Of a stretch of DNA of 56,011 nucleotides, positions 3,004-29,200 are shown piece by piece; positions within the stretch are counted from its first letter, which is position 1; the number at the start of each line of letters is the position of its first letter. The translations under genes and the position numbers were made by a program. Origin of the DNA: Girardia tigrina (taxonomy: Eukaryota). A model generated the notes under the pieces. That model did not search any database. It was not told the origin of the DNA and saw only the letters and a list, made by a program, of their open reading frames with translations. Location: positions 33,231 through 89,241 of the forward strand of contig MQRK01223771.1 in the NCBI GenBank assembly GCA_001938485.1, written 5' to 3'.

Positions 3004-3166
3004 ATGCTCAGAAAATCATTTTTTATTGCATTTTTATTTTTACGTTTTCATTCCCAGTCTCTTAATCCTTTGGAAAGGTTTGATCAATCGTCCAGCAGCC
3101 TCAAAAAACCCATCCATGAATCTTCAGTTGTCAATATTAAAATCACTCATTTGTCAGTCGAAATCG
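3004..3166 (+). CDS. Exon 1: signal peptide and Ser-rich N-terminus
   Basis: ATG at 3004 gives MLRKSFFIAFLFLRFHSQSLNPLERFDQSSSSLKKPIHESSVVNIKITHLSVEI (basic N-end plus hydrophobic core). Donor G|GTATTT is phase 1 and joins exon 2 as GGA (Gly). An AG at 3056-3057 could instead make this an internal exon. Confidence 0.65.
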
Positions 3167-6100
3167 GTATTTTATTTAAATAGATTTTATTAATTTACAA
3201 GATACAAATCTTAAAAATAAATTTATTTAATAAATTATTTTAAAATATGTTTTTTTCTATTGAAAAAAATTTTTAAAAAAATCGAAAATAAATTTAATAC
3301 AAAATTATTTTTGTTTATTATTTTAATAATTAAAATTAACTGTTTTTAAACAAAACATACTCTAGAGGTTAATTTTAAAATTTTAAAAATAATAAACCAA
3401 CTTATTTTTTAAATCTAATTATTTTATTAATAATAAATTGATAAAAAAAACAATAAAGTGAAAAATATCTTAGTAAAAAAATTTTAAAAAAATACACAAG
3501 AAATGAAAATTTGGATTTATTTTTTTAATTTAATATTGTTTGTCATAACTTGATTACTCAATGACAATCATTATTAATTATGAAATAATAATGATAAATT
3601 AATTATAAAAAATATAAAAAAAATTAAATTAAAAAAATATGTTGACTTAAAAAGAAAAAATACACAAAAATAATTTAATTTATTTTTTAACTTATAATTT
3701 TTTTGTTATAGTTTGAATACTAATATTACTTCATTACTTTGATGAAAATGTCCTTTCATTTTTCATTCAACCCTTCCTTTTGTTTTGCATATTGATTTAA
3801 AATTCAACGTACCATTTTGATAAAATGGTTCATTTATTTTATATATTTTATTTAAAATTATTGGATTACACAAAGCCTATTTGATAAAATTGTAATTTTT
3901 TTTACAATTGGAAGAAGATTTTATAAATATAATTTCTGGGTTAGAGATAAGAATACAGCCTTTTTTCAAAATAAAAAAAATTATTAAACAATAAAACATT
4001 TAATAAAATCTAAAAATTTTAAAAAAGAATAAAATAAAAAAAGAAGAAAATTTTTGTTATTATTTTTAAATTTTTTAATTCGTACTCGTGATTTATATAA
4101 AGCTTAAAGGACAAAGACAAATAGATGAGCTAGAAGCTATTGAGTTTCTACAAGCGAGAGGCCTACTCAAAAACACAGTTATATGTGAATCGTATTCATA
4201 TCCCTTGAAGCTCCAACAGTACGAAAGGCAGCAGAATGGCTATATCCGGGGTTGTGGTTCATTTATTAATAAGACTTCTAATAGAACAGCAATTTTTCTA
4301 AAGAATTCTAAATTCGGATTGAAAGAACTGTTAAATTTGATGTTCAAATTCAACGAGATTGAATTGGTACACCAGAGCAGACTCAAACATTGCTAGAAAC
4401 ATAGTTTCTAGGTGGTTTAATGTATTCAAGTTTACACTGGAGAAAAGCCTTTAGGCAGACTTTGAGGAAGAAACGGTGCAACTATTTAAATTGATGAATG
4501 GGTGATTGCCAAACAAAAGTGCAATCGTAGATGTGTAATTCTTCAACAATGGCTCTTTGGAGCTGTTGATGGGATTAATAATTATTTTATTTTTGTGAGG
4601 AATATTTTGAATGTTTGATGTTTTGTGTTTGAACGTGCATGTTGATTTGGAAATGTATCTCTCCTACCCAGATGGATGATTAATATTTGAATTCTTTTTA
4701 TCTAAAAATATGTTATGTTTAAATTTATTTTTAATTTCAAATAATTTTACAATTTTAAAAGTTAATTATTTTTTACAATTTTTAATAAATAATTCAAATT
4801 AATCTTTTTTAAACAATTAATAATCATTTTAATTTCTATCCAATAAGTTTTTAATAAATATTTTATTAAAATATTTTTTTCCCCATTTGCTAAAAAATAA
4901 TAAGAATTAATTCATTAATCAATTTAGTTTAGAATGCAATCGTACGAAAGCTTTAACAAAGATTGTCTTCAGGACAATCAAAATTGTTGTTTAAATAAAA
5001 ATATGAAAAGTCAAATTGTTCTTAATAATTTTAAAGTACATTGATAATAGAAGCAGTTACATTGAAAAGTTTAATAATTGATTCACTTACTACATGATTA
5101 ATTCCAACCACTGGAGTTTATATATGACTATTTTTAATAAGGACCTTGGTTTTAATCACGAGAATTTGGCAGATCCTAATTCTGGTGCACATTCTAATAA
5201 CATCGAAAACCTTTGAATGTTATTAAAACAGGCACTAAGAGAAAGTATTTGAGAAAAACATGAGTCATTTGGATCTTTATTTGGTAGACTTCTGTATAAG
5301 GCAGAAATATTAAAAAAATGTAAATTTGAAAAAAGTCTGTATTTTAATCTCTCACCAGTTTTTTTTCTTGAGAGCAAATTAATTATGGTCGTGGACATGA
5401 TATTTATATTGTATATGTAGGAATTTTTATGGCTTGAAAATTGCCTTGTTATTAACTATGAAGTGAAGAGGAACTTTTTTATGCTTAAGTTGTTGGACAA
5501 AGATAGGAATTTCAATCGTGAAAATATTCGAAACTAGGATTGTGTTCTACAATAAATTGTGAACTTAAAAATTGAATTTTTTAGATGCTTAATATATTTA
5601 TTATATCAATTTTAACAATCAATTTCAAATTGTTTTTGTCAATTTTATAGCGCTATAAAATGAAAATAAAGTAATTTTTTTGGGTGGCCCTAATTATCAG
5701 TAATTTTCTAACCTAAAGTCCCAGGATTTTTATTTTCTTTATAGCTGATAATTACATAGTCAAAAAATAGAAATATTTATTATTTCAAGAGAACATTTTC
5801 CAATATTAGAAACGTTTTTTTCATTTTCATGGTGTTTACCATGTTTATATTTTTATAAAATATTTTTTTTATTTTTTATTATTTTTGAAACTTGCAACCT
5901 GGCAAGAAATAATTGTTGCACTTATTAAAAGACTTTATTTTGTTCTTTCCAAACATAATTTAATTAATTTTCCTAAAATTATAAATTACGTACTCAATTA
6001 AATGTGATTATTTGTTTTTTTCAGGAAAGCCTATAAAAATAAAATTCTGGAAGAAAAACGAACACCTTAAAGTCCATGCAGGAATGAGCCTGACGGTTAA

Positions 6101-9100
6101 ATGTCGAGTCACCGGTAAGCCTGAACCCTCTGTTTTTTGGTTCAAAAACTCGGAGCCTGTAAATACAAACGATAGCGAAAAAATATTTTCTAGAAGAAGG
6201 TTTGAGTCAAATGAAATTCAATTATTTTATCGATCATATTACTTCGTATAAATAATATACTTAATAAATAATAAATTACAGTAAGTAAAAATATAAATGA
6301 AATGATAGGTGATTAATATATAAATTTAAAATTTTTGAAAAATCATTGCTCAACATTGTCCTTAAATAGAATAATATAAAATATATTTGACGGATCATTT
6401 GTAGATAAATCATGAAAACAATACTTATTTTCACAAGTTACTGAGTTTATGCGTAAACTTTTAAAATCTTTTTAATTAATGAGAGCGGCTTTAATTTACT
6501 TTTCAAAAGATCATATTGAAGGTCTCACAAGGAATCATAACAGTATTAAGAATGCCAGTTGTTAGGGGTCTCTCAGTATCTTTAATAGTTAGTCTTATAA
6601 TTGATGGAATGGGATATTGTAAAACGATTACTAATTCTACAATAAATGCTGATAAGTTAAGGAATATGTTTTAGGAGCTGTGTAAGTATTAAAGAAATGT
6701 TAGGAAAATTGAAAATGCTTGCTTAATTTTGGATAATTTACGTGTTCGCAGACGGTATGATATTCAAAGAATAACATTACAATGTGGTTTTGCAATAAAA
6801 TTTTTATCACCTTATTCTCACGTATATGCTTAACCTTATTGAAAATTCATTTTATATTGTTATCTTCTGTCGGAACGGCCGAATACTCCATAATAAAAAA
6901 GTAAATAACGTTTCGGTAAAAATTTATTTCTATAAACAATTTTCTACTCTTGAAATTTTTTCACAAACTCTGAATATTAAAACAATTTCTTTATTTTAAT
7001 ATTAGTTACTTTTTGGAGGAACCAATTTATTTAAATTACCAACCATACATAGTACAAATATTTATATACATATAAATAGTTTAATTATTTAACTTAATTA
7101 TTATGATAAAATTTTCTTAAAGAATTTTACATTATTATTATTCATTTAAATTAATTTACTACATCAAAAATTTTAGCTTCCAATTTAATCCCTAACATAT
7201 ATAGTAAAAAATGGTGTTATATCTAAACTTAGGCAAGAAGCAACAGGTACATTGTCTGAAATCAATAATGGCAGAAACAACGAGCATGCCTTCTATTGAC
7301 TAATCAGGCTATTTTAAGCATATTCTTCGAAACATTATCAATCGTGCAGCTGGATTGGCATATATTTATCAATAAATTGATTTTTGGTTTTAATTTTGCT
7401 AAATTCTTAAAAAAATAAAAAAAAATATTTATTGATTATTAAAAAGACTAAATTCACCGAAAAATGGTATATTTTGGTATTACATATTTGCTTCTAGTGA
7501 CCATTTATTTATTGTGGCATTATAAAAAATAGATTTTTTTTGCTTAAATATAAAGCATAGAACTTTTTTACTTAAATATAAAACATAGAATTTTCATTCA
7601 CGTAAATATAACACAGAATTAATATTATAACAGAAATAATATTATTTCAAGATATGGCCAGAACACATCAAATCCTGCATGATCTATGAATTCTGCACTA
7701 AATACATGTCACAAAAGATATTTGCAATTTAATTGTTTCAATCAATAATTACAACATGGAAGTTTTCAGTACCAGAAGAAATAAAGTTCTTAATGTTTAT
7801 ATTTTTGACAATCAATCAAAAAGATTAGAATCAAATATTGCAATATGCCGACTCTATTCTGTTGAACAGTCAAGCAATGATATATTTTTAGTTAAGCGTT
7901 TGTATATTACAGATTTTCATTTGAAGACATGTTCTTGTAAAAGAAATTTTGAGTTTGGCATTCCCTGCAGCCATTTATGCGCGGTGATTCTATTTTTGAG
8001 ACAAGATCTGATGATTTTCACTGAAGAATTTTTTATAGGAAGTAACTTTTCAAGATCTTATGCAGAGCCAATAGTTCCACTATCATAATTTACGTCAACA
8101 AAAATTCTATGCTTTATATTTACTGCTTTATATTCTGTAATATTCTGTTATAATATTAATTCTATTTTATATTTACGCCAATAAAAATTCTATGTTTTAT
8201 ATTTAAGCAAAAAATTCTATGCTTTATAATTAAATATAAAAAATTCTATTTTTTATATATAAGCAAAAAAATTCTATTTATTATATTTTCCCTTATTTAT
8301 TTGATAGAAGATTCAAAGAACAGCAACAATTGGTAAAATTATTTTGTGGTCAATAGTGACCATTTAATTTCACATTTCTTGTTAGGTTGTGCCTTTATCA
8401 CCAATTTCTAAAATAAAATCCATAATGTAAAAATTTGTTTTAAAATTTTTTTTTCTGATTTTTAAAAATTTTAAGAATTTTAAATTTTGAAAATTAAACC
8501 ATAATAACAGTTCATTTTTTTTTTAGAAAATTTCGATATAAACTTTAAATTTTTTAAGAACACCATTTTTGCAACATCGCGTTCTTTAAAATTTAAAACT
8601 TATCAGAGTATCTCTCTAGATTATTATCTATTGGTTTCATAAATGGTAAATTAATAAAAATAATTTAACAAATTCAACAGAAAAAATAGTAAATGGAATA
8701 TGACACTCTTACGGTACACGGTCCAAGAAATGATTCTTTAGATTATTATAACCTAATGAAGTTGGAATGATCCTAACTAGTAATATTTTATGATAATTGA
8801 ATAAATAAATTAATAATTAATAATTGACTTCTAAAATTTTAAGCGCTATTTGTTCCAAAGGTCGTTATATTTATAGTTTTCTTTAATAATATTTACGTTA
8901 AAAACCATTTCATATTTTAGAATTTATTGACGTGTAACTACCTTTACATCACTTTCACCTAAAGTTCTCACATCAATCATCTATGGTCCTTCTCAGAATG
9001 TTTATGTATTTTGGTGGACTTACCAAAAGTACTTGATCCGAGGAAGAAGCAAAACATTTGTCCTATATTTTAAGTAGTTTCATTTACCTATGAGTTCCAA

Positions 9101-12100
9101 GTTTTAAATATCTACATTTAAAAAAATTAAACACATAAAATATTCATATTTGAAAATTAAAATATCCTTGAGGCAAGTAAAATATTATTTGTTAATTAAT
9201 TTCAAAGGTTTAACCGTTATGATCAGAACAAATAATTTTTAAAAAGGGTATTGCTTATATACTTTACGGTTCTTGAATATGTAACCAATACGTATTCAGT
9301 CAATGGAATAATTAATTTAAGATGCTGGATCCTAAAATAATGTGCTAATGGTTCTCATAAAACTTTATTGTGAATTAAATGTAATGATGATGTATTTATT
9401 ATATAATAATACATTGTACTTGTATAAGAAACTTTTTTTAAATCATCTGTTCTGATGATGATTGTTAAACTGTCCAAATTAACCAATTTATGCCTTCATA
9501 TATATTTTCATTTTCAATTTTTTGGTTAATAAATTTGGATTTGAATGTGTAGAGGCTATTACTTCTGGGGAGAATGATCTGGTTTCTCCTTTATATGAAA
9601 AGTGTTTCATTTCTGATTGGACTGAAGGATCGTCGAATGCAATAAACGATGTGATGGTTCCGTTTCCTTGGTCGTTTTCAATAATTTCAACTTTCCCAAT
9701 CTCGAAAAAATCGACACAGAATAATGTGGTTTGTAAATAAAGACCGACAGCGGCCGAAATTTTAACTATTTAGATGTAAAATAAAAAATGAGAATTTTCG
9801 AAATTAATAATTTATTTCATGAAAGTTACTTGAGTATTTCCAATTTAAAAAAAGTGAAAGATGGCATAATAAAAATTGTCAGTGAAAACAACTGATTTTT
9901 TGTAAATAATTAATATAGTAATTTTAAATATATATATACAGAGGTGGCCATAAGTCGCTTTACCCAATTTTAATAATAATAAACACAAAATTCTAAATGA
10001 TTTATAAACAAAAACCAGATAAAATTTTTTGTTTTAATAATTATTTATTTAAAAATTTTTAAAATTATTTCATTTTGTTCATTGTTGTTAGCAATATTGG
10101 CATATCACGACAATTAACACTTCAGCAACGAATTTTTATAGTAAAGCAGTGGATAAAGCATGATAGAAATTCAAGAGCTGTAACTGCAGCATTTACAAAA
10201 GAGTATCCTAATGACGATTCTCCATCACGACAATCAATGCATGTTTTGGCTAAAAAGTTTCACGAGACGGCTCTATAACCGTCAAGAAAAGAAGTGGGCG
10301 CCCTAACAATATGAATACCTATGAAAATAAAGAAAATGTTAGAACCAACAATCTTTCTCCAGGAATTTGTGTGTGGGGAGGAATACGTTCAACTGTTGTG
10401 ATGGGTCCATACTTCTTTGATTGAACGGTCAAATCTCAGCTATATCTCGACATGCTGCGTGATTTTGCAGCTTGACACAGATAACGACGTTTGGATGCAA
10501 GACGGTGCTCCCCCTCATTATGGTAGAAATGTACGCGACTTTTTGGATAACACTTTTGAGATGTGGATCGGCAGGAGAGGAACCACTGAATGGCCTACAC
10601 GATCCCCGGGACCTGACACCTTGTGATTATTCAATGTAGGGTATCCTGAAGGAACGCTTTTACTCACAAAATGTTCTAACCATATTCGAGTTGAAAGAAA
10701 GAACTACTGGAGAATTTGCAGCCTTGAACAACGATAAAGACTTGTGCCGACGAATCTGTCACTTTGTTCAGAGAAGAATCCAGTTGTGTATTAAATCTGA
10801 AGGACGACACTTTGAAGATAAGATTTAATTGTTTTCAAGTTTTTGTTTTGAAATTATTATTGTACGCTGATTAAATAAAAGTTGCATCATTTAGAATTTT
10901 GTGTTTATTATTATTAAAACTGGGTNNNNNNNNNNNNNNNNNNNNNNNNNNNNNNNNNNNNNNNNNNNNNNNNNNNNNNNNNTATATATATATATAATTA
11001 TTAATATTGATTTTAATTATGTTTTTTAAATTATATTAAATCAAATTTTTCATTTAATTTAATAGCTTTTTGTTTTTTTATTATAAATGATAAAAGTGGT
11101 CACTACAGTATGCTCCAAAATAATAAAATATTTATAAAACAATATTTAGATTAGGAATTTTAGAGTTTTGCAGTGGGTCACTAAAAATCTCTTTAGATTA
11201 CTAAGATATACTATATAGAGGGTCGTTAAAGACCCCTTTGACATAAATTAGTTAATAAAAATGTGCATTTGAATCGGCCTGATGAATTATTATTTGATAA
11301 TTTAACAATAATACTTTAGATTATTTACAAATATTTTAAAATTTATGATAACACAACTAATATTATTTACAATAAATAAAATATAAAATATATCAAATTG
11401 AAAGTGGTAAAATTGTTTTTGTCTTCGAGATCTCATTTACTTTTATATCATACACAAACCGCGTGTATGAAAAAGATTGTATATTAAAATAAGTTTAAAC
11501 TGTCAAGCAATATTAAAGACCACAGTCACCTATATGCTTTGAAATCCCTTTATTCAAGGATATATATTTTTAAAATAAATTAATTAACTATTTTAATTAT
11601 TTTTGGACAACTAAAATAACTGTTTGATGATCTTTATAAAAAATCACATCTAATTTGATCTTTAAGAAAAGAATATAAAACTATAAGAAGTAAGTGTCGC
11701 TATAATAGTTCTTTACACATTTATCTGGAAACTTAAAAACAGTACTTTAATTGTTTAAAGGAATAACATCAGAAATGGAAACATTAAACAGAATTAAATA
11801 CCGGCAAAAATATGTTTTGTTGTTAAATCTTTGGGCAATGGATGTGAATTCAAAACTTTGGGATTTGAAAATTATCAAAAATTAAAGTCATTGAAATCTC
11901 GAAATTGAGAGCAGCGGAGTCAAACCCGGTTCTTACTAGTCTTATTTGTATCTGCATAATCTTATACGAATAAAAAATTCTTATTTGAAAACCACATACT
12001 TTTAGAAACGAAGCCATTTTATATTTTCCTTCAATATCTATGGAAGACACGTCAAATTATTCATGTAAAGCAAGTAACTCCAATGGCTATATTAACAAAT

Positions 12101-15100
12101 GGATTGAAATTAAAGGTAATCTTAAATATTAAATAATCATTCTTACAATTTTATTTCTAATTTCTTTATCCTTTTTTGTATAAATTATACTTGTGACATT
12201 AACAGATGTCATAAAATTAATTTAAAAACTTTTTCTACAAAAGATACAGGTTAGACTAATATTTCACAGTGATAGATATAAACGTAGTATTTGTGACGTT
12301 ACTCAAAACACTACCATGTTGAGCCAAAAGTTACTCATCTTTATTATTTTATAAAACTTTTTGTTTTACCAGATCATTTAAGTCTAACATTTATTTGCAA
12401 CATTTGGTATCATTTAAAACCCATAAAAATGGGAATCAAACTACACTTTATAAGTTAAATCTTTAAACTTGATTCCCCTATCTTTTCCATTTTTTATTAG
12501 CTTACTTTCTATATATATATATACAGTAGCCGCTGATTTATTTGAATCCTTGGGGATTTGTAAAAGGTTCAAATAACTCAATTATGAAAATTATGTCATA
12601 ATTTTAAAAATGCCATAAAATCATTTGGAAAAATAATGAAACACTATTTTTACTAAACTTTATTTCAAAACAAAGCCATTATCATTCAATTTTGTTTGTT
12701 TGGAAGCATTTTCTTTTTCAATATGAATAATTTTCTTAATTTTGTTTAAGGATTGAAATAAATCAATATCACTATTTTCAGTACACATAATAAAATTTCT
12801 CAATGTGTTTATCGTCTCATATACAACTTGATATCCTGGTTTTATGAGTGTAGTTTCCTCATATTCTTCTTTGTTGTTAACAACGTCTTCAACCACATTT
12901 ATATGACTGATATTTTCAATAGCTATTACAACAATCTGATCCACTGTAACGGTTTCCTTTATTAAGGAAGGATTAACGTTACAGATTTTATCAAAAGATG
13001 AATCTGTGTTTAAAAGATCCTGTAATTCTTTTACTTCATTTGTTGCATCAGTTTCATAGTAAAGTTCATTGCTTTTAAAAGATTCATGATTCTTAAAGCT
13101 ATAGTTAAAGCAGTCGGTAATTAAGTCCTTTTCAATCATATCCCACGCCTCCGAAGTCAAATAAATTGCTTCACGGAGAGTAACACTTTTAATTAAAACA
13201 TTTTATTGACATTTATCGACAAGCTTTTTCAACAAACTCTTTTTGTAAAATGATTTGAAACTTTTTATTATTCCTTGATCAAGTGGCTGCAATAGAGATG
13301 TTGAATTCGGAAGTAGATATTGCACCTTAACATTTTTTAATATTAAAGTGGGATTAATACTGTGGCACGGCGCATTGTCTAATAGTAAAACGATTTCTCT
13401 CTTTCTTCGTATCATTTGACTATCCACTTTCTGAAGCCAGGAGTTAAATATCTTACTGTCCATCCAGGATGATCTGTTAGATTCATAAATAACTGGGAGA
13501 CTTTTTACATATCTGAAACATCTAGGTTTCTTAGATTTTCCAATAACAAGTGGTGGTAATTTGTCACACCCGGTAAAATTTGCCGCAAACAAAACAGTGA
13601 TTCTGTTTTTAGAATTGTTAAAAATTTACATCTGTCCTCTTTAGTAGTTAATCTGGTAAAAGTTCAAAAAATAATCCTGTTTCATCAGCATTGTAAATTT
13701 GTTCTGGAGAGTATTTAGCCAATAGTTTATGTAGTTCATTTTTTCTCCACTCACCTGTAGTTTTATGATCAATTCTGTCTTTGTTTCCTACAGTTTTCTT
13801 TACTACTAAATCGTGTTTATTTTTAAATCCATTATACCACCCATCACTGGCTTTAAATTTATTGATACTCAAACTTGATGTCACTTCCTTCGCTTTTTTT
13901 AATTACATCAGCATTGGTAGGAATTCTATGATCTCTCAGTAATCTTATAAATTCCAAAATTGTATCTTCCAGCTCTGGATTTTTACCCTTTGCAATTTTC
14001 GACTTACCACTTCTACAATTTGAATCTGTCATTTTAAATATTTCTTTTTTTTCTTTTCCAATAAGAAAGGGTTGTATCACTTATACCATATACGGCAGCA
14101 AGATCTTTCTGTGTCTTCAATTTATCTTCAAGTAGTTAGCGAACTTTCGCTTTCTCCTTAAAAGATAAGCTGATTTTCCGTTTTCTTGAAAGCTTTTCAT
14201 TTTTATTCATCATTTTACGCTTCTAAAAAATAAAATTAATTTATAAAAAATGTGTAAAAAATCAACATTTCCCTATAATAAATACCAAATAAAAATACTT
14301 ACTTATTTAAAATGGTATTTTTAAAATGTATTTTTAAAACAACATTAAATTATTTGAATTTTTAATTATAATATTCAAATAACTAAATAATTTAAATAAC
14401 TCTGCTAAAATTTTAAAATTTTTCTATTTTCTTCAAATAGCTGAGAGTTTAAATAACTGAGCGTTCAAATAACTCAATAACTATATATATATATATATTC
14501 ATGGAATTTAGAAACCTACTTTTGAAGATTTTTTACAAAATCAATTTTCCCAAACTTTGCATACTTAAACATTTATGATGACAACAAATGATTAGGTAAA
14601 ATTTGATCAAACTAGTATATTGAAACATTGTTTTTACAAAAAACGTTTTACGATTATCCACAAATGTTTAAACTGTATTATATAAAAATATTTTGGTTTT
14701 TTTCCTTCCATGCTTTATAATAAATTTATCATATTATTAGCAACTATTTAATTGCAGAAAGGAGTTGTAAAAATTTTTGGTATGACATTTTCCATTCTAA
14801 AAAAGATTTAAATAATTGCTAATAACATAATTAATTTATTAAAAAATGTAATAGTAATTGCCCTTCTACAAAAGATTACAAAAAATTTTGTTGGCCAAGT
14901 AGAGTTCTGCCCACATAAAGAATGGATATTAAAATTTTTTTTTGATTTACTACTTATATTTTAGAATAATTGAAGAAAAAACAATAATTTGCGTCTTATT
15001 ACGACATTATTGGAAAAACTCTTAAAAACAGCAGCTACAACTCGATAAAACTGCAACGTGGAAGGCAAGCGTGTACTATAAGAAAATACAGTTCAAATGG

Positions 15101-18100
15101 TTTCGGCGTTTTAATCAGGGAGATACCAGTCTTGAAGATCAGGAAGGTTCAGGTGTACCATATTCAGAAAGAGAATCAAAATGTGCATCAAACACCTAAT
15201 ATCAATTTTTGACACTTGTTTTCTTTGAAATGTGCGGCATAATGTGCACTATCGATTAGCACTTAAAAAATATCGATTAGCACATCTGGGCACTGTGCAG
15301 TGATCGATTAGCACTTTTTTCTATGGTCCTTAGTGATGGGGTCGTGGTTGTTATGGATACGGGAACCATTACCATGGTTATAACCACCTTGAATCACTGT
15401 ATTCGTTGCCAATAAGAAACGTCCCTTGGCTACCGTTGCTATGGTAACGAAGGCCATGGTTACCGTCACCAAGTGAACTAAAACAGTTGCTATGGTAACC
15501 GGAACCGTTGCTAGGGAACCAAGCAACCAATCAGAAGTGTTTCAAGTAACCTGGGACCAATCGGAACCGTTGCTAAGGTGACTGGAACCAATGAGAAGCG
15601 TTTCCAAGTGAACCGGAACGGTTGCTATGGTAACCGCGACCGTTGCTAGGGAACCGCCGACCAATCAGAAGTGTTTTTGGGTGATCGCGACCGTTGCTAG
15701 GGAATCAAGGAACCAATAAGAAGCGTTGCCAAGTGAACCAGAATCGTTGCCATGGTAACCGTGGCCGTTGCAATGGTGATCGTGACCATTTCCATGGTAA
15801 CCGCGACCGTTGCTATGGCAACGGCCTCCCCCACGGGGGGGGTCATGTGGGGAGAACATACATTTTTCCCCTACTGTGTCATCAAAATTTGTAAAAATAT
15901 AATAGTCGCATAAAAATATAAATAATTTTTGACTCAACCTGGTAAAGTAAGGTTCGACAAATTTAGGTCTGGCGAGTGTTTCAATTAGCTTACTGGAATT
16001 TTAAGATAATCAAGTTTGTATTTTAATAGAAGCATAACATTCGAATTTATTGAACGTATTAAATATTAAAATGAATTCTTATTTGAAACTGTAAATTTAT
16101 AACTTTACCATTTGACTTTTCAATCAATGATGCCTCATATGGTGTACAGATTAATTGATTGAACTAAAAGTTTCTGCTTTGCCTTTTTACTATATTTACT
16201 CTATAATTAATTTAGTTGAATGTTATCAGCTATTGCTACCAATACACTTTTGCAGCCCTTTAAGCTTATGCAAATTGAAAAGTAGCAATGTTGCGTACCA
16301 AATATCACGGTGAAAAGTTATTTTCAAAAGAGCAACTTTGTAAGAGCAAATTGCGTTTTAAGCTTCCATGTGCTCAACTCAGTGATATTTTTCAATTGAG
16401 TCAATCAAAATTAAAACCTGATATAAAATATCTTCCTAAATGTATTACGTAAGTTGTTTGAACGCATTGGTTTGGCAGTTATTTTAAATTTAATATCACC
16501 ATCAAAATGGCTTAGTTTTTTTAATCGATTAATTTTTTTGCCTAGTTGATTATCATAATTTGTGTATGTAGTCTAACTTTTAAATGTACCTATTTCTGAA
16601 CTAAAACATCAAGGAATTAATATTTTAACACAGGGAATTTTGATATTAACTCACTGCTTAGGGAAAAGAAACACATTTATTCATCACATCGATGATTTTT
16701 TATGAATTTGTTCATGATTTTCTTAAATTTAAAATAACTGCCAAACCAATGCGTTCAAACAACTTACGTAATTTAATTGATCAACAATACAATATAACAT
16801 ATTTTAATAAAATCACTTCGTATCAATGCTATTAAATTCCTTTAAAATTCGTTCAATTTTAATTACCCTAAATTACTGTGGATAACCCGTGGGTAATACG
16901 GTGGATAAAGACGATTTTTCGAAAAACCTATGGGTGCGGGTTATACATTACTTATTATTTTCATAATGAACTTAATGATCGAAAATTGAGATGTGGGTTA
17001 TACACGGGTTTGGGTTATCCGCAGTAAATTGGGGTATTTATAGTTTGATAATTATTTTTCTGAGATAAAACATATCAAACCTCATATAACACATTCAACT
17101 CCCAAACACCCTCACACTCACATAAAATTAAAAACAAAGAATGACAGTGATTTAAAATTAAGCTCAAACATTATTAGCAACATCACAATTTGCGTGGAAA
17201 CATTTATTAACAACACAAACAGACTCATTTTCAGTAGCACAATCTGCGAAAAGTATCGTTATTGATTAATATGTTTTGTGTATCTATATTCAAATCTTTG
17301 ATTAAATTAATGAGATAAAAATAATATTAACTTTAATTTCTCAAAATTTTATTGGATAAAAATGCATTAAGTAAATTTTAAAATAAACATTAGTTTTTAA
17401 ATTATTAAATTTAAGAAGTTAAAATCGTTTTACTAAAAAATATTATTAAAATTTCTAATTACAACAATTTTAGCTAATTAGTATGTAAACATTAATTTCA
17501 TTAGATTTAAATAGATAATCAATAAAATATCAATCCTATCTTGGTAGGAGAGTCCGCATTCTAAACAGCATACACACAACAAACTTACAACATTCAGTAT
17601 TTTCCCTCACAAAGATATTTAACAAAATATTTAAAGAAAGTGAAAAATATACGTGGTTGAAGCATTAAGTCCCCGGACTAAGTATACAAGGAAAATCACA
17701 GGCATTTCATATATTCTACAAGTAAACATGTAAAGGTTTACTTCTCAATGTAAGAACCATTATTGGCCACGCACTTCTCCCAACGTACCCACTAATTCCG
17801 AAAAGGCATCTTTGTAGAAGTTTGTCACATTCAGCAAAGAAATTCATAACTGCATCTCTCACTTTTTCATGAGATTTAATGTTTTTACCACGAATCGCCT
17901 TCTTTAGGTGTCGAATAACCAAATGAAGGTCAGAACTGTATGGAGGATGAGGGACAACGTTGAAACCTGCATCATCAATAGCAGCTGTGGAAAGGGCACT
18001 TTTGTGAATTGGTGTGTTGTCTTGCAACAGCCACAGTGGTGAGCCTCTAGGCTTCCTACGCAGTGGTCTGGTCTCAGCAACGAATGAGACATAGTAGGCG

Positions 18101-20213
18101 CTATTCAGTTTCACTGTTTTGTCTGCGAAATCCAATTTTATGACACCATCACCGTCCCAAAATACAGTCAGCATAAGACATTGCCCGCGGCTTGTCCCGG
18201 ACCTCATTTTCAGTGATTTTTTTTATTTGGAAGACACCATTCTGAAGATTCTCTTTTGCTTTCGGGTACATAGAGGCTTAGCGGTGTCTCTTCTACAGTG
18301 ACAATGTTGGATAGATATCGTTGTCCATGTTCTTGCCACAAATCCAGGTTTTGTTCAGAACACTGCAAACGTGCCTCGTACATCTCTCCCGACAGAAATC
18401 GTGGCACAAAGCGAGATGTCAGCTTCCTTCTTTCAAGGGATATCAACACATCACGTACTTTCCCTTCACTAATGTTCAGACTAGCTTCAAGCACCTTTAC
18501 AGTGATTTTTCTCTTTGTTTTGATGATTTCCGCGGAACGTTTTTCTAATTTGTCTTGATCGATTTCCACTGGTCGTCCTGGTCATTGATATAGAATCGAT
18601 AATAGAATCAGGGGAAGTCCTTTAAAATTACAAAAAAACAGTTTAAACATTTGTAGATAATCGTAAAGTAATTAAAATAATTATAAAGATAAAGATAATC
18701 ACAATAATTTCTAAATCTCGCGTCGTGTTTTAAACGAATCACTTTAATCATCGGAACTTCACACAGACAGAAATCATAATTCTATTATAGTATTAATTCT
18801 AATCTCTGACAAATATAGAAAATAATCCATATCAATTCAAAATCTAACGAACAGTTAAAGAAAATCGTACATAACCGCATATAACATCAATCTAAATCAT
18901 CTCGGAATCTAGACCTTATAATCGCATTCTTCGATCTAAAAAAAGCAAGACAACAATCCATACCAAAACGAATCATCTACTAAAAAGTAACTTATCTATT
19001 CAAATCCCTCTCGTATTCTATTTTGTGATAAACAACGGCATATACTTTTTATCACTTCTTTCGTTAAAGTTAATAGTTAACATTAATACATTTATTTCAA
19101 ATTAGTGTTATCATTATTATTTCTTTATTAATTAAAAGCGAGTTCACTGAATCATTTCTTTTTCATTTAGCTCGCTTGTATAATGTATAGCTTGTAAATT
19201 ATGTTTACGAATGTACAAATACATCTAAAAGCAATAGGCTATAATTTATATATAATTTATAATTTTTCAAAAATAATGTAACGATATAATTATGAAATTA
19301 TTATCAACATAGGCTGTCGTAAAAAGGCGTTTTCTCTGAATCATCGTATAGCCTGGTTTTCTCTTATATGGACTGAGGAATTTCTTCGACACCACTTGCC
19401 GACATTTCATGAGGAGAGGTTGAAAGGCGCTGTTGAAAATATATGTATGGACCAGCGATCTATTCTGGAGAAAGGAGGGGATTATCTATAGTGTTTGTAT
19501 TAAAACATGTATTAAAAAAACGCCGTCTTTTACGACTCAGCCTATAATATTTCAAATTTATTAATTTAATTCTCCTTCTTTAAACAATCTTTTTTTCTGG
19601 ATTATTATCTTTTATCCAATATTTAGAAGAAAGAAAAACTATTAAAAGAACTCACGAGTTTTCTCGTGTGTCCATGTAAAACATTGTATATTTTATTTAT
19701 CATCTTAATTATAAAAGATAAAGAAAAATGTATAGCTTGTAAATTATGTTTACGAATGTACAAATACATCTAAAATCAATAGGCTATAATTTATATATAA
19801 TTTATAATTTTTCAAAAATAATGTAACGATTAAAAATAAATTTTTATTGTAGGTCTTTCAATTATAAACGCAAACATTCATTAATTTTAAAGTTTGAAAA
19901 CTACAGACAATTAAATGAAAATTTTCACAAAAGTTCTTTAGAACAAAATTTTCCGAACGGTTTCTGTTCGTATGAACAATTTATACGAAATATGTATTAT
20001 ATTTAAAAAAAGATTTGAAAGAGAAATAGAGAAATATGAGACTGTCGTTCAAGAAACACTGCTGCATATAAGTTTCTTAAGATTAAAGAGAAGATTGTTT
20101 CTATTTTTTTAATATAAAATATTAAATTATTTTATTCATACTATTAATTATATATAAATTAAAATTATATTTTATAACTTTAAGTTAATTTTTTTTAAAA
20201 TAATAGATAACAG

Positions 20214-20250
<37 letters not shown>

Positions 20251-23200
20251 AAATTTTTTTCTACTTTAATCAACATTAATATTTCCCTTTACGATTAAAA
20301 TATTAAATTAAAAATATAATTAACTCGAATTCAAAACGAATTAAAAAAAATCAAACGGAAATAAATCAGTGCTGAATATCCTTCTTCTAAATGATTCGGA
20401 GTTCAATGATCTAGAGCAGTGGTCTTCAAACTGTGTTCCGCGGAACCCTAGGGTTCCATGAAATCCCTCAAGGGTTCCACAAAAAAAATCAGTAATTCAA
20501 AAGAAATTGCTTCATTTCTCATAAAAAAATAAATAAAAATCTCAAGAATTTCATAAAAAAACTTATATAAAATCTATATCTATTATTTATTTAATTACAG
20601 AACAATCATAATTATTACGTAAATATTTTTGNNNNNNNNNNNNNNNNNNNNNNNNNNNNNNNNNNNNNNNNNNNNNNNNNNCTATAGGAATATACAGCTA
20701 GGCATAAGATTTCAAATAATATCTAACACTAATGCATTTAAACTTATATACATGTCAAAGTAGATAAACAAAGTATAAAGCTCAAAAACCGCCATTATTT
20801 GTCGACCAACCTAATATACAATACCTACTGTAAAGATTTGCCTATATGCTAGTTTTTTTTGCGTACCAAGTGACTTGCATAGAGACAATCCCACTGTATT
20901 TAACTTTCAAGACACAAATACATAAAAAACCGAATTTTAAAATTTTAAAAAAATTTAAACAATATATTTTAATTAAAATATTGTACATTTACTTATTTTA
21001 GGATATACCAATTTAAATACTTTTCTTTTTAAAAATAGTTATAATTGATTTTTAATTTTTAATTAAAAAATTCAACCTTATGAAATTATTATTAGTTCAT
21101 TATTATTATGTTAAGTATGTTTGAGTGATGAATTATTACAATTACAAAAAAATGCCCATCTCCATCTGGGTGGGAGAATCACCATTCTAGGTTTAACATA
21201 TTCTACTCAACATACTGCATTTACATACAATTTAAATTATCTCTCACAATGATAATTATCTTTAAATATTACCATGTTGTTTGGTATCAAAACTAGTTTG
21301 CATTTCCAATTTAGAGGTATATTCTTAATGTCTTTTAATTTATCTTATTAATTAATAGTTTTCTATTTTCACCCACAATTTATTTTTATTGATGATGCGC
21401 CAACCATAATTTCATTTTTTCAAAGTTGATCACAAACATTTATCCAGAGTTTGAAGAATTTATGTCAAACGAATAAATTACAAATCTTGAAAAATCTTAA
21501 TTCTTTTTCTTTAGACATTTCATAAGTTGGACGTCATTTTCGGTAACCATTTTGAGTTTGTATTCTGTTTTTAGGTTAAACCAAACAAGAAGAAAACATA
21601 CCCTGCAACCATGGTGTGGTACTTCGGTCAAACGACCGAAAAAAACAATTTTCTTTTGTTTATGTGAACTGAATGAAAATAATTTTGGTGTCACAATTTT
21701 AAATTTTGTAATATTTCAAAAAAAATAAATATCGTTTTGCGTCAATATTCAACAAGGCTATTGCTCTAGCCCAGTGGTCTTCAAACTGTGTTCCGCGGAA
21801 CCCTAGGGTTCCATGAAATCCCTCAAGGGTTCCACAAAAAAAATCAGTAATTCAAAAGAAATTGCTTCATTTCTCATAAAAAACATAAATAAAAATNTCA
21901 AGAATTTCATAAAAAAAACTTATATAAAATCCATATCTATTATTTATTTAATTACAGAACAATCATAATTATTACGTAAATATTTTTGCGTACAGAATAC
22001 TTAACATAATCAAAGTAGTATTAGTTTTTTTAAATTTTTTAAGAATTTTTTTTGAAAAATATTTTCACTAATCATAGTGATCCATAGCATGTAAATAAAA
22101 ACGTAACCATAACAACGAAATAATTAGTTTTCACGTTCTTAGTTTCAGAGTAAACATTTTTTTAATTCCATTTTCCATTTAAACTTCGCAACAACTTAAC
22201 TTCGAGATATAAAAATATCAATATATTGATAAAAAAAGTTATATTGAGTTTTAATTTTAAAGAATTGTTTAATGTTTTTGTGTTTAATTATAGTGAATAT
22301 TTGTTTTGTCTTGCGACATAATTATTACTTTTCTATCAGGCTAGCTAGCTTACTATCTTCTTTTTAAGTGATTAAAAGGTGAGATGCTTTCAATATATTT
22401 TAAATTTTTTTAACACTAAACTTAAATCGACAGGAATATACAATGGAAAATTGGCTTAAAACTGGAAAATTAGTAAATTCTAAAGAAAATTGTTCAAAAG
22501 CACCTGCAGCTTCAAATGAAATAACGACAGAATGGAACAATTTTGAAAACATTACTTCCAAATTAGGAGAAAAAAGTCGCAAAAAAAGAAAATATGATGA
22601 ATATTATTTAAATTATGGTTTTACATGGACCGGTGATGAAAATGAGCCAAATGGGCTTTGTGTAGAAAGCGAGCAAGTGGTATGTAACAGCAGTTTAAAT
22701 CCCGCGAAATTAAAACGCCACTTGGAAACCGTTCATCCGACATTAAAAAGCAAAGGTGTTGATTACTTCAAGAGAAAGTGTAATGAGTTGAAAGAAAAAA
22801 AGACTTCTTTCATAAATTTTGTGCGTGATGATAATAAAAATACTCTGACCGCATCTTACCTAGTCAGCTTGCAAATTGCTCAACAAGGTGAAGCTTTTAC
22901 CATTGCTGAAAAGTTAGTAAAACCTTGTGCAAAACATTTAATAACATGCATGCTTGGCAAGAAATATGCAAACAAAATTGATTCTGTCCCATTATCCGAT
23001 ACCACGGTTTCAAGAAGAATTCCAGAAATGGCAAACTATTGTGAAATGGAACTAGTAAAACGTTTGCAAACTGTTAAACAAGGATTTACTCTCCAATTAG
23101 ACGAATCCACCGATGTCTCTGTCTTAGCTATCTTGTTAGTTTTCGTAAGATATATTCATGAAATGAACTTTTCAGAAGATTTGCTGTTTTGCAAAGCTCT

Positions 23201-26200
23201 TGCTACAAATACAGCAGGAGAAGAAATATTCAACAAGCTTGATGAATATTTTGAANNNNNNNNNNNNNNNNNNNNNNNNNNNNNNNNNNNNNNNNNNNNN
23301 NNNNNNNNNNNNNNNNNNNNNNNNNNNNNNNNNNNNNNNNNNNNNNNNNNNNNNNNNNNNNNNNNNNNNNNNNNNNNNNNNNNNNNNNNNNNNNNNNNNN
23401 NNNNNNNNNNNNNNNNNNNNATGCCAAAGGAACTTAACGAAGTCCTTAAAGAGGTTGTTAAGTTAGTTAATTTTATAAAAGCCAGGCCACTAAATTCCAG
23501 AATATTTACCTTACTATGCGAAGACATGGGAAGCATACATACAAAGCTATTACTTCATACAGAAGTTAGGTGGTTATCTTGAGGAAAGGTTTTAGCAAAA
23601 TTCTGTGAATTACAGGATGAAATTCGAATCTTTTTATCCGAACATCCCAATGAATTGGCTGATAAATTAAATGATATTAGTTGGCTTCAATATCTAGCAN
23701 NNNNNNNNNNNNNNNNNNNNNNNNNNNNNNNNNNNNNNNNNNNNNNNNNNNNNNNNNNNNNNNNNNNNNNNNNNNNNNNNNNNNNNNNNNNNNNNNNNNN
23801 NNNNNNNNNNNNNNNNNNNNNNNNNNNNNNNNNNNNNNNNNNNNNNNNNNNNNNNNNNNNNNNNNNNNNNNNNTTTCCTCCTCAAACAGACAATTTTAGT
23901 TGGGTGCAAAATCCGTTTGTTGAATCTAGTGATGCAAAAACATTATCACTTAAAGAAAGAGAGCAACTGATAGACATATCTACAGATACAACATTAGAAA
24001 CCACATATCGCCAGGTTGAAATTGTTACATTTTGGGTTAAATTATTGAATGAATATCCGGAAATTTCCAAACGAGCCGTAAAAGTATTAATGCCTTTCGT
24101 AACAACATATCTTTGCGAGAGATCATTCTCCCTTTACATTGCTACAAAGACAAAATACAGAAACAAACTTGATGCAGAAAATGTCATGCGCCTACGGTTA
24201 ACACCAATTTCTCCAAATATTGTCAAATTATATGGTGAAAAACAAGCTCACCCAAGTCATTAATTTAATTTTTTTAATTTTATTGTGTAAATAGATGTGA
24301 CATTGATTTTTATTATTTTTGAATAATTTTGAATTTATATTTAAAAAAGCTAACTATGCATAAAGAAATTTATTTCACATGAGGGTTACGCGAGCTTTTG
24401 AAGTTTGAAGACCACTGATCTAGAGGATATTAAAAAAGGAGTCATGAAATTCTTTGAATTAAAACTGCATGAATGGTGTAGTGAAGGTCAACTTGATTTT
24501 ATTTTATCAAAATTTTCATTTCCTTCGAACTATTCGAACGCGGTTTTCTCTGTGATTGACAGGACATAACGTGGAAATATGTACATGCTTTTATAATTGT
24601 TATCGAGAATAAGTGTGCACAGTCTAAATAAAACTGATTGATTAAAAAACCTTCAAAAATAGGTTTCTAAATTACATATACCTATATACCCAGATAGTAT
24701 ACGTAGGTTAAACGTAGGCTTTTCTGGAACATATGAATGGTTCTTCGTCGAGTCACAGGCTGAAATTCGTCGTTCTAGTCTCTTTTTTTATTTTCTGAAA
24801 AATTCGATATCCAGGACCTCATTAATTCCAATCGGGACTTGTACCAAAAAAGGTGATGGTCCATCACAATTATTGATAATGTGAAAATTTGACAAAAAAA
24901 CTTTTTAAGGTCTCAGAAATGGGAAAAAACGGTCCCATCGGAGTTCCTGAACAATATTAATTGAAAAAGATCTACTTATAAATTATAAGTAGGTTATATT
25001 AATTTTTTTGTTTTTTTATGAAATTATTTTTTTAATTAAAACTTTGTTGGTAAAGTAGTGTTCTGTGTGCATAAAGAATGGATATAAAAAATTTAATTTT
25101 TTGATTTACGAGTTTAATGATAATAATTGTTATAATAATTCGAGGATCATTCTTGATCCCAGCTATGTAATTTCTATAAGTGAACAAAATTTACACTATT
25201 AGGAGGTACTGAAAATGATTAAAAAAGTTATAAATAGCAAAATTACAACTAAAAAATTTATTAAAATCCAAATTACTGAAATTCCTAATAACACGATTTC
25301 AGTTATTTTTCATTCTAAATCAAAATTTTAATTGATTTATTTTTATTTTTACTATAAAATGAAACCTGTTAACTAAACTAGATCAGTCTAACTCAATGTA
25401 TATCACGGAATTGAGTTAGGCTAGTTTAACGACAGTGAAAATAAAATAATTAGCCTCAACAAATAACCAAAGAACAAGAAAAAAAACTCTTTAATTCATA
25501 AAAAACCTGCATAAAATACAATCAGCGGTAATTAAGTCCATAGTTAAAATTTTTTATTGTCATTATATTTGTGATCGAATTTTTGTATTGATCCAATTTT
25601 TTTATTATTATTATCACTCAAACGCCTACACAGCCGATTGACGATTCAATACACAAACTAAAGGAAAAACAATTGAATCTCCCATTTTATAACAAATCCG
25701 TTTTACTGTTTTGGATTAACGAAATGATATCGGAAATAACACTCGCTGTGACATATATCGTTTCACCGTTATATTCGAAATCGTCGAGTCGATGATTTTG
25801 CGATGGAATTGAACAATCTTTTGAAAGTGAAAAATAAAACCAAATACATAAATATAAAAAACACTTGAGATCAAAACTTAAATAAAAAGACTGAAATAAA
25901 AAACAAGGTCCAACACACTCACGCTGCAAAAAGAAATGACAAGAGATAAAGGACAAAACACACACACATGCATAAATAACAAACACCATCCGTTTACAAC
26001 GGTGAGGTATCACACTTCATTCTAAATCAATATTTTAATTGATCAAAAAATACAAAGTCATTCTTACTAAGCACCATTCTTGCCAAATAATTTTATAGTT
26101 ACATATCTCAGTTAACACATTCGTTGCTACTGACAAAAATACTTGTCCTTCCCTGTTCAAGCGTTAGCTGCCGGTGACACATAAACGTGTCATAATCACG

Positions 26201-29200
26201 TCTTCCATTGGTTTTTTTATTTATATTGTCTATTAAGAATGAATTTCAAGGTTTTTTTTTAATTCTGAAAAAAAGTTTCCTACCCGAGAAGTAAATTTTA
26301 TGATTTATAGTGCGACCATGATAGTGTTAATACAGTCTCAGTTCGTTAAGACGCCCGTCGTAAAACTGCCACCCTCGCTAACCGTCTAGAAATTCTTGGA
26401 ACTGTTTTAAATACTATTGAAAACCACTTTGAACTGCCATACCATCGAAGTCCGCCAACCGCCACTTCAAAATAAGATCACTAATATATGGATCCCTCTT
26501 TAAACCGCCAAAGTGAGTGTAGGATGAGTTTTTGTAAGATCGCCTTTGAGAAAAAAAATGTGGAGATGAAGGAAGTTAGACTTGGATATTAATGTTGTAA
26601 AAAGAATTACTGATGCCTTGAAAAATGTGAATCAAATTTTAATCGTATTAATTTAAAATATTGAGAAAATTAGGTACAGTTCATGTTTATGGAATTAAGT
26701 TTAACTAGAATTTTTCGTAACTATTTCAGAACTTTAGGGACAATTAATTATTAGGGACTAGTATTATTGAGAATCAGTAAATAACTTTTTGGCTTAATTT
26801 TTAAATGGATTATCATTTATTATTATTATAATTTATTTACATAAATTTGTTTAACACTGAATACAGGATTTTTAGCTGAACTCTTTACATTTTAATTAAA
26901 TCCAAAGTGAAATGCTTATGAAAATATAAACAAATATAAATAATATAAAAAATATAAATAAATAAACTTTTATGATCATTGTAAGTGTTAAGATTGTCTT
27001 TATTGTTTATGTTTTTGGTGTTCCAAAAAAGTATGCTTCAAGATATTAAGAAACGAAATTTTAAATTTAATTTATTGATCTATTACAAACAGTCTTTTAT
27101 TAAAAGAATTAAGCTTTTTACAAGGGTTTTATGTACGTGTATATGTGCGTAAATCACGCTTTAATTTGCAAAGTGAATCATCCAATCAAATTTGAGTATC
27201 TGACACACATTTGTATTTATTTAATTCAATATTAGGAAAGCAATTTAAAATAATAAAAATATGAATAAATAATAATTATGGAAAAATTAAACATACTCAG
27301 AACATAAATTCTTTGAGATTAAAATTAGTGTTATGATAAATAAATAAATAATTTATGAAATAGAATTAACTTATTGTAAAATTATTTTAATTAGGTTTTA
27401 TTAGAAAATTTTTTCTTTCAAAGCCTCATTCTCAGAAAGAATATTAAATTTATAATGCTTCTTTAAACAACAAATTTTCTTTTCTTTTGTCAAATTGTTG
27501 ATTAAATCAATTATTAATTTGATTTATTAAAAAAATTAAACCAATAATTAAAATTATGACTATTACAATTTAAATGATAAATTAGTATAAAATATTATAT
27601 GGAATATTATTTTAGAGAATTTCAATTAATAAAAGTATCAAATAACTAAAATTAATTATTTTTCCGATAAATAGAAAATATTATTTTACAAAAAATGGAT
27701 GACTCTTTTATTTCGTCAGCGATTTTTATGGACAGAAATTCAATAAATGTCAATTTTATCAAAAACATCTAATTTGAACTATAATTACAATAAAATAATT
27801 ATTTTTTATTTTTTTGAAAAATTATCTAATAATTTATATTTTAAGAAACGTTTCAATTTCTTTTTTTCCGTACTTTTTAATGACTGAAAATTGAATTTCT
27901 TTCTGTAATAAAAGAAAAACAACAGAAAAAAAGAATGTCGCAAGAAATATATTTTCATAAAAGAAGAAAATTTTCTTTTGTTTATTTATTATCACATAAC
28001 CAAATATTTTGTTAGTAGATTTACTTAATATTATTTTACATTATTTATTATTTGAAAATAGTTATTAATTCTAATATATTTGAAATAAAAAAATAATGAT
28101 TTTAATTTAGAAATAAAAGTTGTAGTATAATTATTGTTAGGAACTCAAGAGCCACTTTGAAAATTTCTGAATATACAGATTATTTGAATCATTAATTTTT
28201 ATATACTCGGAAATTAAAGATCATTGGTCCACCCGACCCCCAGGTCGCCCCGAGGATCGGACGGAGGCAACAGATTTGCGCAGTGGCTCGACTCGAATTA
28301 GCTGGGCCCATTTTTTGTTAGTAATCTTTAATAGAGTACTTTCTTCGGGCGTTCTCATCACAATCAGCTTAGGATAATTCGCAGATGAATCGATTAATTT
28401 TATCCTCAGATCGAAATTGCTCCCAACTGACAAATCCCACCGGTTTATGAGCGTTCTTATTTTTATTCAAATAAATTCTGTATCGATCTATCGTGTCTCT
28501 ATTGAACAAATTTTTCACCAAAATATCATTGTTGCTTTCACTTTCCTTTTTCGAAAGTCTCTGTCGTCTCATTTTGACAATTTGTTCGAAATTCAATTTC
28601 GCTACATCATTATCTTCGAAATATTTTCGACGGAAATTTAAACCATTAATAAAAGTTGTCATATTTTAGCAGAGAATTTTAAATGATCAATTAAAAAAAA
28701 GAGTTCGATTTAAAGAAATTTATTTTGTCGCCACGTCAATACAAATTTCAATTTTTTAATTCGATAAAACAAATCAAAAAAAATAATCACATTTTATTCA
28801 CATTAATCAATATTTTCCGCTTTCCAAAACAAATCGAATTACAAAACTCTCAATTTTTTTACAAGTGAATATTAAAAATGTTTTTTTCACAAAAAATAAC
28901 AATTAAAATTTTTTTTTAAAAAACAGAGAAAGTTTTTACATTCATAGTTTTCATTTTTGATCGATTTGAAACAATATATTATTATATATACATATAATAA
29001 TGAATATTTAATTTAATTAAAAAAAATATAATAAATTTAAACGTTCGAATTCCGAACAGTCATTTGAAGTTATTATTCAAAGTTATAAGAAAAAAAGTTT
29101 GTGGAACGAAAATTCACAAAATTAATTTGAAATTCAATATTAATATTATAATTTTGTCCAGTTTAGGTCGATAAAAATTTACAAAAATAAGTTCCCAAAT

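Follow-up and report, generated by a model that had tools for sequence, protein, structure and literature searches.

An array of RFX X-box-like units and CCAAT boxes at the likely end of a Polinton-like mobile element in a host intron

The third intron of a gene for an Ig-domain membrane protein contains an array of 16 RFX X-box-like units and six CCAAT boxes, and the stretch carrying this array is very probably the end of a mobile element. The window, i.e., the whole stretch of DNA analysed, is 56,011 bases long. Assignment of the end to the Polinton/Maverick class is fairly probable; it is called Polinton-like here, since the window has neither a second end nor a target duplication, contains no Polinton genes, and forms only a weak terminal hairpin. 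On balance, the stretch may be read as an orphan Polinton terminal repeat whose RFX-, NF-Y-, and CUT-type sites served the transcription of the element itself. The preliminary description of this DNA had offered the terminal region of a Polinton/Maverick-like element as one of two readings, and this one draws support from the end motif, from a relative whose flank differs, and from the parallel architecture of a repeat end in another genome; the spread of RFX modules through the genome, proposed there along with it, is conjectural.

Three RFX X-box-like patterns, with the last base of the 13-mer allowed as C or T, gave 11 exact matches (5 + 3 + 3), all within 15435–15822 and none elsewhere in the 56,011 bases. 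Once degenerate copies are included, 16 units lie in register in the same interval, without assigned strand, with starts at 15435, 15465, 15486, 15507, 15539, 15569, 15600, 15621, 15642, 15673, 15693, 15725, 15746, 15767, 15788, and 15809; repeat families D2 and D4 correspond to this array. The phased array of the preliminary description, put there at about 14 copies, is thereby borne out, and its exact 21-bp runs lie where it had placed them. Scored against GTNRCY(N0-3)RGYAAC, which we take to be the RFX consensus, six units match exactly, three have one mismatch, six have two, and one has three; nine of the 16 fall within one mismatch. Exact consensus matches number six in 15340–15830 and none in the other 55,302 bases of the window, while 300 dinucleotide shuffles averaged 0.02 such matches and never gave more than 1. 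Nothing resembling the array is present elsewhere in the window.

The six CCAAT boxes, all exact matches on the plus strand (15409, 15527, 15557, 15588, 15661, and 15713; overall 15409–15717), are those counted in the preliminary description, and each begins 12 bp ahead of the following X-box-like unit. Four of the six fit RRCCAATSRG, presumably the extended NF-Y consensus, and these four are the only such sites in the window. Inward of the main array, on its left, lie decayed units at 15347, 15368, 15405, and 15421 (15347–15434, no strand assigned), partly out of phase with it. The site at 15405, taken earlier as the start of the array, does exist, but it is a half site overlapping a CCAAT box and not a full palindrome. 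Farther inward, three minus-strand copies of ATCGATTAGCAC (repeat family D5) start at 15251, 15272, and 15303, i.e., at steps of 21 and 31 bp, and all three copies found in the window fall within 15251–15314. ATCGATTAGCAC contains, on the minus strand, TAATCGAT, by name presumably a site of the CUT class (Onecut/Cux). The three copies share a phase of 0.29–0.32 and, although they lie outside the alignment with the relative P0122 described below, probably belong to the same element as the X-box array.

The step from unit to unit is 20–21 bp where no CCAAT box intervenes and 30–32 bp where one does, the only exception being 15435–15465 (30 bp, no CCAAT). The best period for the 16 unit starts is 10.40 bp (R 0.957), and since the CCAAT-bearing steps measure 30–32 bp, one helical phase is common to all 16 units. 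In a null model in which the 21-bp steps were kept and a single ancestral long-step length was drawn from 26–40 bp, 182 of 5000 arrays matched the observed phase. Helical phasing beyond tandem duplication has modest support, suggestive but not overwhelming, because periodicity arises from tandem duplication alone. The array grew by duplication of a higher-order block of 125–135 bp. Conservation over eight units is 0.83 in the motif columns versus 0.71 in the spacers, the motif being only somewhat better kept, and several units have decayed.

From the shape of the motifs, the array may be expected to bind RFX and NF-Y. The MHC class II S-X-Y module, to which the preliminary description had compared it, occurs once per host promoter, needs CREB and CIITA, and is vertebrate-specific. 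The parallel stands as far as an X-box beside a CCAAT (Y) box at a fixed, helically sensitive spacing is concerned, as the module is generally described; it is otherwise loose, the window having 16 palindromic units with the CCAAT boxes sandwiched between them in a repeat of invertebrate type.

The candidate end of the element is the minus-strand AGTAGG at 15870–15875, placed there by its sequence, by its agreement with the Maverick/Polinton end motif, and by the boundary of similarity to P0122, and located to within about 1–2 bases. An end of the AGTAGG type is expected by chance about 0.027 times per 100 bp of one strand. The first X-box-like unit on the minus strand starts 54 bp inside the end at 15875, and between the two lies a G+C-rich spacer (15824–15869, minus strand) with short G/C inverted repeats, conserved in P0122. 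The G+C content is 0.60 over 15824–15875 and 0.41–0.60 across 15241–15875, against 0.29 just outside. With a z of −0.99 over the last 50 bases, the terminal hairpin is a weak one and by itself not significant. The inner end of the element lies somewhere between about 15154 and 15250, where it adjoins on the left a broken 5′ piece of a mariner transposase (14882–15160, plus strand; SETMAR DNA-binding domain 7s03_A, E 0.0016). The match of this piece to the SETMAR domain fades after the S-G-x-P motif, and its first part, 14882–14943, is repeated at 25038. Another mariner lies at 17.65–18.58 kb on the minus strand; the two were considered as halves of one target and rejected, being on opposite strands and, by eye, apparently of different families.

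Self-BLAST of the window revealed no second copy of 14801–16100, a search blind to any partner that lies beyond the window or is hidden in an N gap. The flank hexamer joined to the AGTAG end, tested for this single end, occurs nowhere else in the window, and no target duplication, which in Polintons measures 5–8 bp and usually 6, was found for it there. Among the 115 of 132 ORFs of at least 58 aa that were scanned, none has a Pfam match to a polymerase (pPolB), integrase, ATPase, protease, or capsid protein; such an absence is expected for an orphan end, yet it leaves Polinton membership a matter of probability.

A full HMMER (phmmer) search of 1.84 billion proteins, with the accidental frame 15668–16000 as a query, returned two hits. 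One, P0121, is a low-complexity repeat matching the flank and was dropped. The other, P0122, an unnamed database ORF (E 5e-6 among 1.84 billion proteins) with no Pfam family and no Atlas match, is the sole relative and is known as a protein only. The alignment begins at VGEK, whose codons lie over the end motif, takes in the 7-residue (21-bp) units, and reaches a CCAAT unit, with 29 of 56 residues identical and one unit fewer in P0122. Similarity begins at the codon at 15874, with none before it. Between the window and P0122, at least 0.59 base changes are needed per codon inside the boundary (51 codons) and at least 1.83 outside it (42 codons), the null value being 1.66; a low rate inside and a null-like rate outside point to a related copy elsewhere with a different flank. 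The base identity of P0122 to the window is at most 80%. A word-seeded protein search with the array frame yielded 12 candidates, none of them significant.

Maverick ends are described as (AGT)2 and (AG)3, with 6-bp target duplications and terminal inverted repeats (TIRs) of 46–1447 bp, a range which the length of the present end fits (PMC8097293, available part); TIR and target duplication sizes are also given in PMC10748475. The supplement of the former lists AGTAGT 713 times and AGTAGG, the rarer motif, 37 times. In each of the 29 Maverick rows listed for AGTAGG, which cover 30 of its 37 occurrences, this motif stands at the 5′ end (25 tuatara, three axolotl, and one gharial), and 21 of the rows have CCTACT at the other end; all of them are vertebrate, a point that, like the rarity of the motif, weighs against the Polinton assignment (PMC8097293). 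Gene-less, TIR-only Polinton remnants have been reported in Caenorhabditis elegans (PMC11414722). The present end resembles Polinton/Maverick TIRs in its AGTAG(T/G) terminus, in its length, and in its survival as a gene-less remnant (PMC8097293, PMC10748475, PMC11414722), and it differs from them in having one end, no target duplication, and no genes in the window. Neither RFX/NF-Y arrays nor helical phasing are described in the available parts of the published accounts of Polinton TIRs that were examined.

A comparable architecture occurs in another genome. A scan of bacterial genome contigs (GTDB) with a pattern of two X-boxes 21 bp apart, containing no end motif, gave eight loci, six of which are isolated chance matches lacking an end motif; only in two, L004 (WPAE01000165.1) and L006 (WPAE01000113.1), does an end motif pointing outward lie no more than 200 bp away. 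These are two copies of one repeat starting from AGTAGT, with different flanks (L004, 1382–1793; L006, 1225–1648), on short contigs of one bacterial bin, which are probably animal DNA contaminating that bin. AGTAGT is followed by a strong and long hairpin with CACGTG boxes (z −8.5), then by X-boxes at steps of 21, 21, and 27 bp, the first step being imposed by the scan pattern, and finally by a YY1-like array of four units at 15-bp steps, out of helical phase. The repeat shares with the window an AGTAG-type end, a G+C-rich tip, and X-boxes 21 bp apart followed by a second site array; it differs in the strong terminal hairpin, in having a YY1-like array in place of CCAAT boxes, and in the distance from the tip to the first X-box, about 115 bp versus 54 bp. 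Beyond these motifs the two have no sequence relationship, and no gene that would prove the Polinton class is present on the two contigs. The repeat is probably a second end of the Polinton type.

The following course of events is proposed. The DNA from 15875 inward to about 15250 would be one stranded end, most likely a Polinton/Maverick TIR, separated from the genes of its element and from its other end. Its tip would be a dense promoter/enhancer in which two units, one of 21 bp with an X-box and one of 31 bp with an X-box and a CCAAT box, were duplicated in tandem, a process that would space the sites by two or three turns of the helix and so align them along a single face. On the intact parent, host RFX dimers could occupy the palindromic units, NF-Y the CCAAT boxes between them, and a CUT-class factor the sites further in, side by side; the loaded factors would hold the end in an open state and activate the genes of the element, which point inward. 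This predicted promoter would be active in cells rich in the factors, such as ciliated cells and male germ cells, and expression in the latter could lead to heritable insertions. In the present copy, the array has probably been silenced and survives as a relic.

The literature on planarian Polintons and transcription factors would fit this proposal if the host is a planarian, for which a G+C content of 0.276 and a CpG o/e of 0.94 are loose indications. The Polintons of S. mediterranea are repressed by piRNAs and gain activity during differentiation (PMC8532177), acquiring H3K4me3 and RNA (PMC8532177, PMC10558129). A planarian Rfx factor tracks the cilia modules (PMC12660999), and both NF-YB (PMC11802806) and onecut (PMC7817839) are required in planarian spermatogonial cells; these statements rest on the available parts of the papers.

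Several other explanations were weighed. According to the first, rather unlikely, the end belongs to another DNA transposon (Mutator/foldback, P/Galileo, hAT, or unclassified) terminating in CAGTAG, whose repeats bind RFX/NF-Y or the element's own protein. The base preceding AGTAG in the window is C, and the codons of P0122 are compatible with C there; since C fits both copies, the end may be CAGTAG and belong to a different superfamily. Moreover, no Polinton gene lies nearby, and elements with subterminal repeats do exist in the window (the 28-bp units around a SWIM ORF at 7.5–8.3 kb). Against this stand two points. A transposase site would not be expected to match two host consensus motifs at a fixed spacing, and no TA, TWA, or TTAA target site is present at the junction, either in the window copy or in P0122. 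By their target-site rules, Tc1/mariner/pogo elements, Harbinger, and Kolobok are thereby excluded. Among further classes, Transib, with its CAC end, was rejected as incompatible with the codons of P0122, and Helitron/Helentron elements were dismissed by eye, there being no TC...CTRR ends or pair of subterminal repeats.

The main rival, itself unlikely, is the U3 enhancer of an LTR retrotransposon, with a minus-strand LTR running from 15862 (TGTA) to 15154 (TACA) and a polypurine tract at 15863–15875. The right end fits both boundary models at about equal prior chance, AGTAGG at 15875 (0.027 per 100 bp) and TGTA at 15862 (0.019 per 100 bp, the approximate chance of the 12 purines in 13 bases that abut TG). 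The TGTA...TACA ends lie 709 bp apart, and gypsy elements are present in the window; each end consists of four bases only, the left one being near the fading mariner match. LTRs bearing NF-Y sites are already known from LTR12/ERV-9, which resembles the array as a mobile element with CCAAT/NF-Y sites and partner factors, open in male germ cells (PMC11802806, PMC10968565, available parts). Unlike the window array, which is X-box-dominated and has a boundary not of the LTR type, LTR12/ERV-9 is a retroviral LTR with GATA-2 and MZF1 as partners. Against the LTR explanation stands the lack of a target duplication, 4–6 bp long in a solo LTR (CAGG versus TTTT, and an alternative start at 15210 yields only a T-run), and of any pol remnant alongside. 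A solo LTR would not include a polypurine tract, while a 3′ LTR should share internal sequence past the tract, and in P0122 the similarity outside TG is confined to 13 bases (15863–15875), including a T inside the purine run. With base identity of at most 80%, however, an internal region could have diverged.

A Polinton end may also have used its phased host-factor sites mainly to aid the protein-primed start of replication at the tip rather than transcription, a proposal drawn by analogy and judged improbable. In adenovirus, NFI and Oct-1 sites in the inverted terminal repeat help to start protein-primed replication. The likeness lies in host-factor sites just inside a protein-primed end, and the differences, as the adenoviral repeat is generally described, in its use of NFI/Oct-1, in single sites over about 50 bp, and in its replication role. 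The position of the first site (54 bp from the tip in the window and about 115 bp in L004/L006) and phasing on one face, which suits DNA bending, would agree with a role in replication, whereas the extension of the array about 390 bp inward and the presence of CCAAT boxes, a promoter element, speak against it.

The other reading of the preliminary description was an enhancer of an EGFR-ligand-like gene in ciliated cells. The location in intron 3 holds: under a model with GT-AG introns and an open frame, the host gene on the plus strand has six exons (3004–3166, 6025–6199, 12006–12115, 32056–32149, 38052–38134, and 38185 onward), with intron 3 at 12116–32055. Its product has a signal-peptide-like start, one I-set Ig domain (Pfam), a Cys-rich stretch, and a hydrophobic segment. 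The Cys-rich stretch begins in an EGF-like manner, but its Cys spacing is non-canonical and it has no Pfam match, EGF included; two N gaps could hide an exon. An NRG-type EGFR ligand would combine an I-set Ig domain with a six-cysteine EGF domain and a transmembrane segment. No homolog of the Ig exon was found, Atlas giving generic Ig clusters only. Comparison by eye with the NRG of S. mediterranea in the supplement of PMC4914847 (available part) showed the gene to be different, which leaves an EGFR ligand unproven, so this part of the claim is not established; peptides looked up in that supplement are absent from it. An open frame at 49903–50130, following an AG acceptor and having several cysteines but no Pfam match, may be a further, downstream exon of this gene.

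That the array is a native or co-opted intronic enhancer of this gene in ciliated cells is very improbable. A strong motif cluster within intron 3, CpG that is not depleted in the array, and the possibility of co-option of transposon ends would favour it. On the other side, the relative elsewhere has a different flank, several units have decayed, the array is a repeat wedged among transposon debris, and nothing was found that ties it to the host gene. The CpG richness is uninformative, since CpG o/e is 0.94 genome-wide (G+C content 0.276). Most likely, the array is left over from a transposon and does not act as an enhancer of the host; its later co-option by the host is conceivable. A coding heptad repeat or a chance minisatellite of no regulatory meaning is hardly credible: a 111-codon minus-strand frame does span half of the array and has one database match, but the 31-, 32-, and 20-bp steps break every frame, there is no Pfam match, the reading frame in either copy continues past the end of the element into flanking DNA that is unrelated, and chance does not explain NF-Y-type flanks with a fixed 12-bp spacing. 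Contamination (no phage match, just a 35-bp chance match in three plasmids) and an RNA gene (a single weak Rfam match of 25.3 bits against a cut-off of 110 bits, and no tRNA) were rejected.

No description of RFX or NF-Y arrays in Polinton ends was found in the literature, most subscription papers and Repbase reports lying outside the search; the available parts of PMC10748475, PMC6431247, PMC9522251, PMC8502044, and bioRxiv 2026.01.28.702291 contain nothing on them, and the term 'rfx' in the available part of PMC11464507, on protist giant viruses, does not describe such arrays. The repeat family itself may well be catalogued already. Published accounts of Polintons, as far as available, cover genes, end motifs, and silencing, and not promoters. 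A phased RFX/NF-Y array in a terminal repeat would offer a concrete and cheaply testable answer to how Polintons are switched on and reach the germline. If true, it would explain the reactivation of planarian Polintons on differentiation (PMC8532177, available part), to which cilia would be the presumed link. A broader and rather speculative extension is that the terminal repeats of Polintons from several animal lineages contain helically phased RFX arrays whose partner sites can be exchanged (NF-Y/CUT in the window, YY1/E-box in L004/L006), tying expression or replication to the cilia/flagella programme and hence to sperm-forming cells, and that orphan ends seed RFX enhancers in host introns. 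Enrichment of RFX or NF-Y motifs in such genomes may stem from repeats. As a single locus, the array is an ordinary transposon relic in an intron.

The window is rich in other repeats. Within intron 3, a Tigger/pogo element lies at 12.5–14.3 kb (minus strand), the named matches of its ORF reaching 61% or less, and a hAT element (main copy at 21.77–24.42 kb) has its left end present twice (20407–20631 and 21762–21988), the extra one 1.36 kb upstream; an N gap separates the two left-end copies, so an assembly error is possible. Intron 2 carries a Mutator-like element (7521–8288), in which a SWIM zinc-finger ORF is enclosed by long inverted ends composed of tandem 28-bp units, and a short match to the N-terminus of Hsp70 (9491–9769, minus strand; E 0.00035), probably a pseudogene fragment. 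Three MITE-like inverted-repeat elements occupy 16444–16772, 16855–17045, and 37477–37881. By eye, 49270–49470 resembles what we take to be a decayed 18S rRNA fragment. On the plus strand, a decayed gypsy element with a zinc knuckle, protease, and RT is found at 51.8–54.7 kb, and a second gypsy-like element starts at 55.2 kb.
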